A DNA stretch of 64,000 nucleotides from an uncultured Acidobacteriota bacterium. Lineage in GTDB: Bacteria; Acidobacteriota; Thermoanaerobaculia; Gp7-AA8. The notes beneath the pieces are model-generated. The model saw only the letters and a program-made list of their open reading frames with translations, searched no databases and was not told where the DNA came from. Each line of letters opens with the position of its first letter. Within the stretch, counting starts at the first letter, position 1. The stretch spans positions 268,603 to 332,602 of the forward strand of contig CAWCBB010000016.1 in the NCBI GenBank assembly GCA_963793695.1. Reading direction: 5' to 3'. This document shows positions 7,420 to 9,273 of this stretch, one piece after another. The translations under genes and the position numbers were made by a program.

Positions 7420-7429
7420 CGCAGGGGGC

Positions 7430-7510
7430 GTTCGCCGTTCGCCGTTCTCCGTTCTCCGTTCTCCGTTCTCCGTTCTCCGTTCTCCGTTCTCCGTTTCTTC
7501 GTTTCTCCGG
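7430..7510. repeat. Tandem heptamer array (GTTCTCC)n, left arm of four-helix-bundle cassette
   Basis: 2x GTTCGCC plus 7x perfect GTTCTCC at 7430-7492, then degenerate units. Confidence 0.9.
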
Positions 7511-7518
7511 AGTTCGAG

Positions 7519-7935
7519 CTAATCCAGAGGGCGGAGGTCCCGGCGCGCCTTGCGCTTCGGCGCCGCCTCCTCCTGCTTCCTTGCCTGCCGCGAGAGATAG
7601 CGAATCAACCCGTTCAAGAGTTGCCCCACGCGAGCAGCATCGTCATCGAGTCGCTTGGCGGATGCTGGCTCGATGAACCTGAGCCGTCGCGCCATTTCGA
7701 GCTGTGTTTCTAACTCGAGCAGAGAACCTCGAGCACGAAAGACGAACTGCCGCTGGTCCCGGTACGAAAATCGCCCCATCGCTTCGGCGACATTCGACGG
7801 GATCGAGACGGCGGCTGACCTCATCTGATCCGAGAGGGCACGCGCCTCGCGATTCGGGAAAGACCGGACGGTCTCGAAGACGCAAATCGAGAAATCGATG
7901 GCTGCCTGCCAAGCTTTCAAGTCTCGGTAGTTCAT
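7519..7935 (-). CDS. Four helix bundle protein (23S rRNA IVS protein / Avd-like family)
   Basis: MNYRDLKAWQAA, LSDQMRSAAVSIPSNVAEAMGR, ARGSLLELETQLE match the family consensus; start taken at MNY rather than 8022. Confidence 0.92.
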   Translation of the reverse strand: MNYRDLKAWQAAIDFSICVFETVRSFPNREARALSDQMRSAAVSIPSNVAEAMGRFSYRDQRQFVFRARGSLLELETQLEMARRLRFIEPASAKRLDDDAARVGQLLNGLIRYLSRQARKQEEAAPKRKARRDLRPLD

Positions 7936-8026
7936 TATCTGTCGATGCCGAGGCAAGCGACCGACAGCATTCGGGTGGGGCCATGGATTGTACCTCGGCT
8001 TGCGACCTACTCGTGACAGCAAACGC

Positions 8027-8112
8027 GGAGAACGGAGAACGGAGAACGCAGAACGCAGAACGCAAAACGGGGAACGGAGAAACGGGGAACGAGAACGGAG
8101 ACGGAGAACGGC
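8027..8112. repeat. Tandem heptamer array (GGAGAAC)n, right inverted arm of the cassette
   Basis: GGAGAAC/GCAGAAC/GGGGAAC units, reverse complement of the left arm; ends at the stop codon at 8113. Confidence 0.9.
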
Positions 8113-9273
8113 CTACGTCTCCTTCCTCTCCGCATGCTCGAACTCCATCCTCAGCGAGAGGAACTTGACCAGATCGCTCAGCGTGACGATCCCTTCGAGG
8201 CGTCCCTCGCGCGTGACGATGAGGCGCGAGCGGCGGCCGCGGCTCATGCGCGCCAGCGCCTCGACCGCCTCTTCGTCCGGCGAGATCGTGTTCTCGGGAG
8301 CGCACGGCTCGGCGATCGCTCCGACGGTCTGTCGGGCCCATTCCTCGGCCGGAAGGTCGCGGATCGCCTGCGTGGTCACGCAGCCGACGAGGCGGTCCTC
8401 CTCCATCACCGGGTAGAGCTTGTGGTGGTATTTGAAGACGTACGTCTCGACGAGCTCCTTGACGGAGATGACCCGCGGGACCGTGACGGGGTTCGTCGTC
8501 ATGAACGCTCGAACCGGCTCGCCCGCGAGCGTTTCGCGAATGAAGAGCTGGTGATACGAAACCTGCCCCGCGCTCCGGATGAAAAATCCGATCAGGATCC
8601 ACCAGAAGCCGATGATGAAGTGCCCCATGACGAGCGCGAGGACGCCGATCGCCATGAGAAGCATCCCGAGGACGTTTCCGGACGCGGCCGAAGCCTTCGT
8701 GGCCGAGCGAACGTTGCCCGAGCGCTTCCAGAGCCACCCGCGAAGAAGGCGGCCGCCGTCGAGCGGAAAGGCGGGAAGCATGTTGAAGAGGAAGAGCGCG
8801 CCGTTCATCCAGCCGAGGTATCCGACGAGCGTCCAGAGGGGACCGGCGAGGCCGCTGGCGCGCCCGGCGGCGCCGACGAGCAGGAGGACCACCGCGAGCG
8901 CGAGGCTCATCGCAGGGCCGGCGAGCGCCATCCTCATCTCGGCGCGCGGGTGGGGAGGTTCCTCCCGCAGATCGGCGACGCCGCCGAAGATGAAAAGCGT
9001 GATCGACCGGACCTGGAGACCGTAGCGCCGCGCGACCTTCGCATGGGCCAGCTCGTGAAGGAGGATCGAGAGGAAGAGCGCCGCCGCGCCCGCGAGGCCC
9101 ATCGACCAGTACGCGGTGTGCGAGAGCCCCGGATATGCGCCCGGAAAGGCTCCGGACGCGAGCGACCAGACGATGAGCGCGAAGAGGATCAGCCACGTCA
9201 GGTCGACGCGGACCTCAAAGCCGGCGAGGCGGAAGAGCGTGAGAGTGTTTCCGAACATACCGTGGTCGGCCAT
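8113..9273 (-). CDS. Site-2 protease (M50 zinc metalloprotease) with C-terminal CBS pair
   Basis: HELAH, NMLPAFPLDGG, CBS-like FMTTNPVTV and LEGIVTLSDL; C-terminal part of the 1528-aa shadow ORF; start 9273 or 9258. Confidence 0.92.
   Translation of the reverse strand: MADHGMFGNTLTLFRLAGFEVRVDLTWLILFALIVWSLASGAFPGAYPGLSHTAYWSMGLAGAAALFLSILLHELAHAKVARRYGLQVRSITLFIFGGVADLREEPPHPRAEMRMALAGPAMSLALAVVLLLVGAAGRASGLAGPLWTLVGYLGWMNGALFLFNMLPAFPLDGGRLLRGWLWKRSGNVRSATKASAASGNVLGMLLMAIGVLALVMGHFIIGFWWILIGFFIRSAGQVSYHQLFIRETLAGEPVRAFMTTNPVTVPRVISVKELVETYVFKYHHKLYPVMEEDRLVGCVTTQAIRDLPAEEWARQTVGAIAEPCAPENTISPDEEAVEALARMSRGRRSRLIVTREGRLEGIVTLSDLVKFLSLRMEFEHAERKET

Follow-up and report, generated by a model that had tools for sequence, protein, structure and literature searches.

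The subject of this report is a small gene enclosed by inverted tandem-repeat arrays in the genome of an uncultured Acidobacteriota bacterium (assembly GCA_963793695.1; 4.46 Mb, 67% G+C, 68% complete). It lies in a window of 64,000 nucleotides, positions 268,603 to 332,602 of contig CAWCBB010000016.1 (C16:268603-332602), whose own numbering is used below unless a contig is named. The gene (7519..7935, minus strand) encodes a four-helix-bundle (4HB) protein of 138 aa, counted from its ATG, and belongs to the Avd-like S23p or 23S rRNA intervening sequence (IVS) protein family (PF05635, 1.2e-29; TIGR02436, 6.9e-29). The left arm, 7429..7509, consists of 11.3 copies of CGTTCTC (Tandem Repeats Finder (TRF) score 123, 94% matches). 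The right arm, 8026..8111, consists of 12.4 copies of CGGAGAA, which is the reverse complement of the left unit read in another phase (score 107, 82% matches), both units being given on the plus strand. An inverted-repeat search pairs the right arm with 7429-7495, over an arm length of 56-67 nt and with 82-89% complementarity. Variant units occur in both arms; the outer two units on the left are CGTTCGC and the inner two CGTTTCT(T/C), and on the right CGCAGAA, CGCAAAA and CGGGGAA are arranged in blocks. Between the right arm and the ATG the sequence leaves a leader of 90 nt (7936..8025, minus strand), in which neither a sigma-70-like promoter nor a strong Shine-Dalgarno sequence was seen.

Together the arms, leader and gene form a cassette that occupies the whole gap between two convergent genes. 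The left neighbor, outside the cassette, encodes a pyridoxal phosphate (PLP) enzyme of Cys/Met metabolism in the cystathionine lyase/synthase family (6262..7419, plus strand; PF01053, 1.8e-123); its stop codon is the TAA at 7417-7419, and the left array begins 10 nt past it. The right neighbor encodes an M50 peptidase with CBS domains (8113..9300, minus strand; PF02163, 9.1e-24; CBS, 1.1e-17), and the right array stops 1 nt short of its stop codon (8113-8115, CTA on the plus strand). The M50 gene and the 4HB gene share the minus strand, with the M50 gene upstream, so that read-through from it would transcribe arm, gene and arm together. An earlier sequence-only reading of the window had described a lone Avd-like 4HB gene between inverted heptamer arrays, more AT-rich than its surroundings and possibly able to form a long stem as ssDNA or RNA. 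The arrangement is confirmed by the sequence itself, by TRF and by the inverted-repeat search. The composition bears the description out as well, with 60.3% G+C in the cassette against 67-69% in the neighbors, and 72% G+C at third codon positions (GC3) in the 4HB gene against 88-91%. As for the stem, an RNA fold of the cassette pairs both arms over about 85 bp, at -322.5 kcal/mol (z = -6). No Rfam family matched in 7300-8250, and none of the PADLOC defense-system protein models matched.

The eight PF05635 matches in the genome represent seven loci, and all seven are enclosed by inverted short-unit arrays (TRF and inspection by eye), each with a unit of its own of 6, 7 or 9 nt. Besides the window locus, C16:276211 with CGTTCTC, these are C1:60720 (AGGGGCT), C10:155389 (GAATGTT), C2:400895 (GAAACCA), the frameshifted C9:10443 (TGATTGC), C4:404374 (the 9-mer GCGTCTAGG) and C16:76656 (the 6-mer GGGCGC). 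For a control we used genes from a crude GC3-based caller, which misses many genes (55% coding), and judged gene context by a local frame test instead; 6 of 2,333 such calls were enclosed by inverted arrays of one unit, compared with seven of seven 4HB loci, which excludes chance. Two of the loci have additional features. On C9, two frameshifted and decayed 4HB copies about 4 kb apart (6511-7178 and 10203-10852) both lie within TGATTGC/CAATCAG arms, and the arrays at both are degenerate too (68% matches). At C2:400484-401350 a full 4HB copy comes after a truncated one, and GAAACCA arrays stand before, between and after the two, an arrangement that looks like unequal recombination between arrays.

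The association extends well beyond this genome. We compared 30 genomes of the same family, order or class, in 26 of which PF05635 is present, and found an inverted array pair around the 4HB gene at 44 of 60 loci from 24 related genera, with periods of 6-10 and units that vary between loci. A wider sample, obtained by a search with the sequence of the Xanthomonas protein XCC0516, comprised 80 loci from about 20 phyla, including bacteria of the Candidate Phyla Radiation (CPR) and one archaeon. The 147 4HB genes in all comprise 86 with inverted arms, 7 with direct arms, 37 with an array on a single side, 7 with unrelated arrays on both sides and 10 without any; an adjoining array is thus present at 137 of them, in about 20 phyla. 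At the 68 loci with full flanks, array density is 4.3 per kb within 150 nt of the 4HB gene and 0.39 beyond, an 11-fold difference. The enrichment of arrays next to 4HB genes, which the sequence-only reading had offered as a check, is therefore strong in the genome (7/7), in its relatives (44/60) and across phyla (11-fold). The association of 4HB gene and array is strong and general, and the cassette in the window represents a type that is widespread, namely a PF05635 4HB gene with inverted short-unit arrays on both sides. Among the 75 informative pairs that hold a 4HB gene, taken from all genomes, 67 have a 5' arm richer in G than in C (p = 1e-12), a rule to which the window's family, with its C-rich 5' arm, is an exception. 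The seven loci with direct rather than inverted arrays (L068, L123, L079, L069, L052, L012 and L116) include three from Bacteroidota, and the Faecalibacter locus carries about 22 copies per array.

The same units are dispersed through the genome. Seven is by far the commonest tandem-repeat period (483 TRF rows), and we collected 733 non-redundant arrays with a period of 6-9 and at least 3 copies. Neighboring arrays of one unit are paired in inverted orientation 153 times and in direct orientation 27 times, and most pairs enclose no gene. The core between inverted arms is mostly 11-130 nt long, and about 380-520 nt in the pairs that hold a 4HB gene. The order of the two arms is constant within a family: 17 of 17 pairs for AAAATGC, 12 of 12 for ACTCCTAG, 12 of 12 for AATCTGC and 30 to 1 for the window's CGTTCTC. 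Since an inverted pair looks identical from both strands, this order must belong to the element itself, independent of gene direction. Of the 733 arrays, 328 agree, at no more than one mismatch, with the unit of one of the seven 4HB loci. Exact matches to a 4HB unit make up 137 of the 483 period-7 rows, where the chance expectation is well under 1%. The window's unit accounts for 122 arrays, again at no more than one mismatch. Two TRF features of this family lie in the window itself, namely a gene-less pair at 35275..35427 (C16:303877-304029), in which (CCGTTCT)x5.9 and (AGAACGG)x5.9 enclose a 69-nt core, and a single arm, (ACGGAGA)x4.6, at 41669..41700. Most array pairs stand within 30 nt of coding sequence. 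They occupy 20 convergent, 57 tandem and 34 divergent gaps (p = 0.16 against 1:2:1), counts that rule out a preference of arrays for convergent 3' ends; the location between convergent stop codons to which the sequence-only reading had drawn attention is true of the window cassette and is no rule for the pairs. A sharp rule of five units per pentamer was likewise rejected, since the lengths of the arrays show maxima near 24, 31 and 38 nt (n x 7 + 3), none of which dominates. Extra structure in the cores is weak (mean z -0.84 vs -0.15, p = 0.048).

Several other arrays deserve description. At 24975-25342 of the window, an inverted heptamer pair of another family, (GACCTCA)x7 against (GAGGTCT/GGCCTGG)x10, encloses (AATGCAG)x3.6. 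At 62329-62432 a compact gene-less pair, (ATTGCAG)x4.6 and (CAATCTG)x4.3, has a 42-nt core; all 12 pairs of its family in the genome have one arm order, and the 68%-complete assembly holds no 4HB gene for it. The 9-mer array (CGCCCAAGA)x4.3 at 11843-11881 shares its unit family with the arms of the 4HB locus at C4:404374. Outside the window, two CGTTCTC pairs, at C1:33762 and C2:365189, contain in their cores a REP-like palindromic element (GGTGTGGTGCGGGCGTCCCGCCCG...), and CGGGCG hexamer arrays are nested within the cores of several other pairs; it seems that array pairs gather other repeats. A cluster of CGTTCTC arrays at C16:131342-134017, one of them of 26.9 copies, is split by four copies of one core of about 200 nt (CGGCAAATGGGGTGAGGCTGCGCGAGGG...) and is a local amplification of one element. 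At C23:6188-6705 and C28:55006-55431, inverted CGGGCG hexamer arms surround two paralogous small genes that are not 4HB genes. Their products have a predicted membrane anchor and a coiled coil, with the motif ...RRWTEVPS...YELDYFRSRA..., and the genes may be a second type of cargo.

The window's array family is specific to its lineage. With no more than one mismatch, (CGTTCTC)3 matches this genome 215 times and each of the 30 relatives 0-1 times, and the reversed control gives no match. Period-7 arrays were absent from 342 kb sampled from two relatives without PF05635, and 16 were found in 400 kb from two relatives with it, a small sample of four genomes in all. Several of the 16 share their unit with 4HB cassettes of their own genome, namely ATCGAGG, AGAGGCG, CGAGCCT and TTCTGAA in one relative (G006) and GGATCTA in the other (G030).

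The cassette itself is also a lineage-specific insert. In two related genera (G011 and G010) the lyase and M50 genes are again convergent and adjacent, with lyases 76-78% identical to that of the window, and the orthologous gap is about 45-50 bp long, with neither a 4HB gene nor a CGTTCTC array. The comparison of empty sites that the sequence-only reading had suggested came out in favor of that reading. In G011 the gap (L181, C93, ~340-365) holds (GTCACCC)x3, another heptamer, which overlaps the lyase stop codon. By exact-protein look-up, a single other contig, L183 (positions 1-3326), a metagenome contig of the European Nucleotide Archive (ENA), carries the window's 4HB protein, and it is identical across the cassette. 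Cassette and M50 3' end are 100% identical there, with 98.75% identity over 2 kb, and the first 1,326 nt of the contig match nothing in the present assembly. The contig may be chimeric; otherwise it represents a strain variant whose breakpoint falls within the M50 gene or upstream of it.

Protein and unit are to a degree inherited together. On the protein tree, unit length changes 21 times, compared with 31.6 +/- 1.1 times for shuffled labels. The hexamer cassettes all belong to a single, essentially monophyletic clade, with one locus scored as heptamer among them; the two 9-mer cassettes are sister to each other. Neighboring proteins from Planctomycetota and Acidobacteriota have the unit AGTGGGC in common. 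Protein identity and unit distance are weakly and significantly correlated (Mantel p about 0.01); units are identical at 77% protein identity and mostly different below 60%. The cassette on C10 is syntenic with one in another genus (L054), where the unit is retained and the genes on either side share 60-65% identity. The hexamer-type 4HB gene is found 83-85% identical in other genera, but in unrelated contexts there.

The family PF05635/TIGR02436 is very large and includes a solved structure; we know of no function for it outside diversity-generating retroelements (DGRs). The window protein scores 103.1 bits against PF05635 (cut-off 33.8), over profile positions 1-106 of 106, and 100.3 bits against TIGR02436 (cut-off 24). 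It reaches 21.5 bits with the DGR Avd equivalog NF033474 and 17 bits with the Avd model PF22296, under their respective cut-offs of 80 and 40 bits, and no reverse transcriptase is near; the resemblance to Avd noted from the sequence is upheld at the level of PF05635 and TIGR02436. In the Pfam search the protein matched PF05635 and, weakly, bAvd, with no HUH/Y1 (IS200/IS605-like) transposase domain. Its closest solved structure is that of XCC0516 from Xanthomonas campestris (PDB 2GSC, 1.1e-15, five chains in the entry), a homopentamer that forms a torus built of four-helix bundles (PMC4990558). From sequence homology to 2GSC and the published description, a pentameric torus fold is predicted for the window protein. 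The conserved family motif GxxRxxxSxxxNxxE (PMC3936711) reads QMRSAAVSIPSNVAE in the window protein, with the S, N and E in place and the R one residue earlier than in XCC0516. A basic C-terminal tail is present in the window protein and in every paralogue of the genome.

Two known systems provide the closest parallels. The first is the 23S rRNA IVS of Coxiella burnetii and Leptospira, in which, as here, a PF05635 open reading frame (ORF) is enclosed by terminal inverted repeats that pair into a long stem. A further likeness to the Coxiella IVS is the presence of tandem heptamers next to the ORF; there, three to four tandem GACAGAT units, in a number that varies among strains, directly precede the S23p ORF (PMC4990558). 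RNase III cleaves the stem of the Coxiella element, for which past mobility has long been suspected (PMC4990558). An IVS, however, sits in helix 25 or 45 of 23S rRNA, whereas the window cassette sits between protein genes. The arms of the latter consist wholly of tandem units, in 11-12 copies, and its unit is dispersed as a genome-specific family of about 120 arrays, which is not known to have been reported for IVSs.

The second parallel is provided by the REP-associated tyrosine transposases (RAYTs) of repetitive extragenic palindromic (REP) sequences and by REPINs, which are REP doublets. In that system, as in this one, a single-copy gene is flanked by inverted copies of a repeat that is dispersed as intergenic inverted doublets in the same genome, each paralogue has its own repeat family, and the families are lineage-specific. 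The 4HB protein, unlike a RAYT, lacks the HUH/Y1 catalytic motif, and the repeats here are tandem arrays of 6-10-nt units with unique cores, not REP hairpins.

Intergenic arrays of a genome-specific heptamer are a feature that the present genome shares with Xanthomonas (GGGAATC), Nostoc and Beggiatoaceae (TAACTGA). For Xanthomonas, Rehm et al. described 70-75 convergent inverted pairs per genome as candidate G-quadruplexes, without a link to a protein (PMC4692102). The papers on these three groups discuss G-quadruplexes, translational regulation and polymerase slippage and name no protein family. In the present analysis, the arrays of X. vasicola were found to flank its only PF05635 gene, whose product is homologous to PDB 2GSC, with (CGGGAAT)x4.4 on one side and (CCCATTC)x4.3 on the other; (GGGAATC)3 has 84 overlapping matches at about 30 loci in that genome, and the control none. 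With Avd the window protein shares a distant homology and the architecture of a pentameric four-helix bundle (PMC10053308). It differs from Avd in scoring far under the Avd cut-offs, in having a PLP lyase and an M50 protease as neighbors with no adjoining reverse transcriptase, and in having no template/variable repeat pair near its gene; flanks of heptamer arrays have not been described for Avd genes. Earlier work noted 4HB genes wedged in cas operons (PMC3936711). Full-text searching, with subscription journals outside its coverage, found no paper that states a general link between 4HB genes and arrays.

We therefore file the window feature as an element with the architecture of an ORF-bearing 23S rRNA IVS, here between two protein genes, and with a RAYT/REPIN-like relation to a genome-specific repeat family. 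At a probability of roughly 55%, we favor the reading that it is an IVS-like cassette and encodes a protein to which the dispersed arrays of the cassette's unit are cognate, in the way REPINs are to their RAYT. The 4HB pentamer would then recognize arrays of the cognate unit, in line with the binding that the sequence-only reading had suggested, and act on them in trans, as DNA or as RNA, and the cassette would stand to the dispersed arrays as a RAYT gene stands to its REPINs. The 4HB gene is probably transcribed by read-through from the M50 gene, since it stands downstream of that gene, on the strand they share, and a search for promoters found none. In such a transcript the arms would pair into the stem of about 85 bp, which should tolerate changes in copy number because many registers of pairing are open to tandem units. 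On the model of the IVS, RNase III may cut the stem and so separate the cassette RNA from the host message; the cut would free the 4HB message and leave host transcripts intact, and the insert would cost little.

How the arrays multiply is a separate matter. The sequence-only reading had suggested a mobile cassette, and part of this has indirect support: the insert is lineage-specific, its composition is atypical, and near-identical 4HB genes occur in different contexts elsewhere. The part that implies transposition as a unit has none. Outside the arms, the longest direct matches average 3.83 nt, and 3.71 nt when pairings are shuffled (123 pairs), so that no target-site duplication is apparent. 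The cores of gene-less pairs are unrelated to each other, to the cassette interior and to any 4HB protein, from which it follows that these pairs were not copied as whole elements from the window cassette. The idea that they are deletion derivatives of the cassette was rejected for the same lack of cassette-interior or 4HB sequence. Such core-to-core matches as exist are nested REP-like repeats, nested hexamer arrays and one cluster of local duplication. Many cores do have short inner boundary motifs, CGGCA...TGCCG in the window's family and AGGGnnTGA in that of AAAATGC, and inverted complementarity often runs a few bases beyond the arrays, at the inner edge in 21% of pairs compared with 8% of controls. 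The C10 cassette, vertically inherited and syntenic, indicates that at least some copies are stable residents. Copying of the arrays is neither classical cut-and-paste nor whole-element copying in the manner of miniature transposable elements with inverted repeats (MITEs). Array writing or conversion at hairpin-prone sites, or template-directed addition of repeats, fits better than whole-element transposition, because the arm order is fixed, the cores are unique and target duplications are missing.

The missing target duplications, the unrelated cores and the vertical inheritance on C10 all count against a RAYT-like cassette with a cognate array family, and so do several further observations. 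No enzymatic domain was found in the 4HB protein by the Pfam search, and no reverse transcriptase or transposase was found near the cassette; the genome's two RVT_1-like genes are distant, at C6:87380 and C4:618875. Promoter-like and terminator-like sites each number zero in 7000-8600. The largest remaining array families (AAAATGC with 58 arrays, ACTCCTAG and AAGTAGG) have no 4HB gene in the 68%-complete assembly, and two intact 4HB genes, with units AGCCCCT and AAACCAG, have almost no dispersed arrays. Unit sequence follows protein identity weakly. By an earlier estimate, strictly armed genes make up only 2.6-7.9% of the whole PF05635 family, and our samples, which consist of best-scoring matches and a repeat-rich clade judged by a looser criterion, may overstate how general the arms are. 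Matching the genome's orphan units to the 4HB units of relatives was uninformative (48% matched, 39% when shuffled).

The alternative that survives best, which we nevertheless regard as unlikely, is that nothing here is mobile and that the 4HB protein acts as a regulator by binding DNA or RNA in a sequence-specific way, or else structures the nucleoid or transcripts. The arrays would be operators, those around its own gene autoregulatory and the dispersed pairs the regulated sites. Heptad operator arrays bound by small proteins reportedly occur in the omega/parS system of pSM19035. Such a role would suit the presence of array pairs in all types of gap, tight against coding sequence and with 34 of them in divergent, that is promoter, gaps; it would also suit the locus-specific cores, the synteny of the C10 cassette across genera with its unit conserved, and the basic tails of all paralogues. 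It is harder to reconcile with the arrays themselves, as some 120 of one heptamer, inverted and in fixed arm order, are implausible as products of site-by-site origin, and a copying process would still be required. The restriction of the CGTTCTC family to one genome among 31, the absence of the cassette from the orthologous gap of relatives, its atypical composition and the occurrence of 83-85% identical 4HB genes in different contexts in other genera also speak against it.

More doubtful still is the possibility that the 4HB genes are passengers, small cargo that landed preferentially in the loops of existing array hairpins, much as the nested REP-like elements and hexamer arrays did, with the arrays spreading independently of the protein. 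Array-pair cores do gather other repeats, gene-less cores hold no trace of 4HB sequence, and large array families exist without any 4HB gene. Passengers, however, would hardly be distributed as seven genes in seven different families, and the units AGCCCCT and AAACCAG are paired nowhere in the genome but around a 4HB gene. Nor would they lead us to expect co-inheritance of protein clade and unit length or sequence, even across phyla, or the lack of heptamer arrays in the samples taken from genomes without PF05635.

About equally improbable, in our judgment, is a specific scheme of template-directed repeat writing, in which the 4HB protein, like Avd with the DGR reverse transcriptase, would assist a polymerase encoded elsewhere, and a short template would be copied in telomerase-like fashion onto DNA ends or hairpins, giving arms of fixed polarity around unique sequence. 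The fixed arm order of each family, the G-rich 5' arm of 67 of 75 informative cassettes, the unique cores and flanks without target duplication, the blockwise variant units inside the arms, the distant homology to Avd and the two RVT_1-like genes of the genome are all in keeping with it. Yet no reverse transcriptase is linked to any cassette, the 5' arm is C-rich in the window's own family, and the scheme is conjecture with no precedent for the family outside DGRs. Finally, ordinary slippage-prone repeats that happen to stand beside a small gene, as might be supposed from the excess of heptamer simple-sequence repeats that in some bacteria is ascribed to polymerase slippage (Mrazek 2007, as cited in PMC4679880 and PMC4692102), can be dismissed in view of the seven armed loci of seven compared with 6 of 2,333 control genes, the 11-fold enrichment of arrays across phyla, and an inverted layout with fixed arm order that slippage does not predict.

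The cognate-cassette reading lends itself to a broader generalization, which we put forward tentatively and with the odds somewhat against it. PF05635 proteins would be the trans-acting, unit-specific partners of a very large and unrecognized class of prokaryotic repeat system, in which each lineage maintains or propagates its own inverted arrays of 6-10-nt units between genes without a known transposase. The heptamer excess of Xanthomonas (GGGAATC), and possibly those of cyanobacteria and Beggiatoa, the ORF-bearing 23S IVSs and the 4HB genes wedged in operons would then be forms of one system. In this genome the link between gene and array is clean: seven paralogues have seven units, about 120 arrays of the window's unit are confined to the genome that has the cognate gene, and the orthologous gap is free of the cassette in two related genera. 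The finding ties the uncharacterized PF05635 family to an unexplained excess of 7-base repeats in bacteria that has been noted since 2007, and the link suggests an origin for rRNA intervening sequences that can be put to the test. Should the protein read its 7-nt unit specifically, the many natural pairs of protein and unit could serve as programmable repeat binders.

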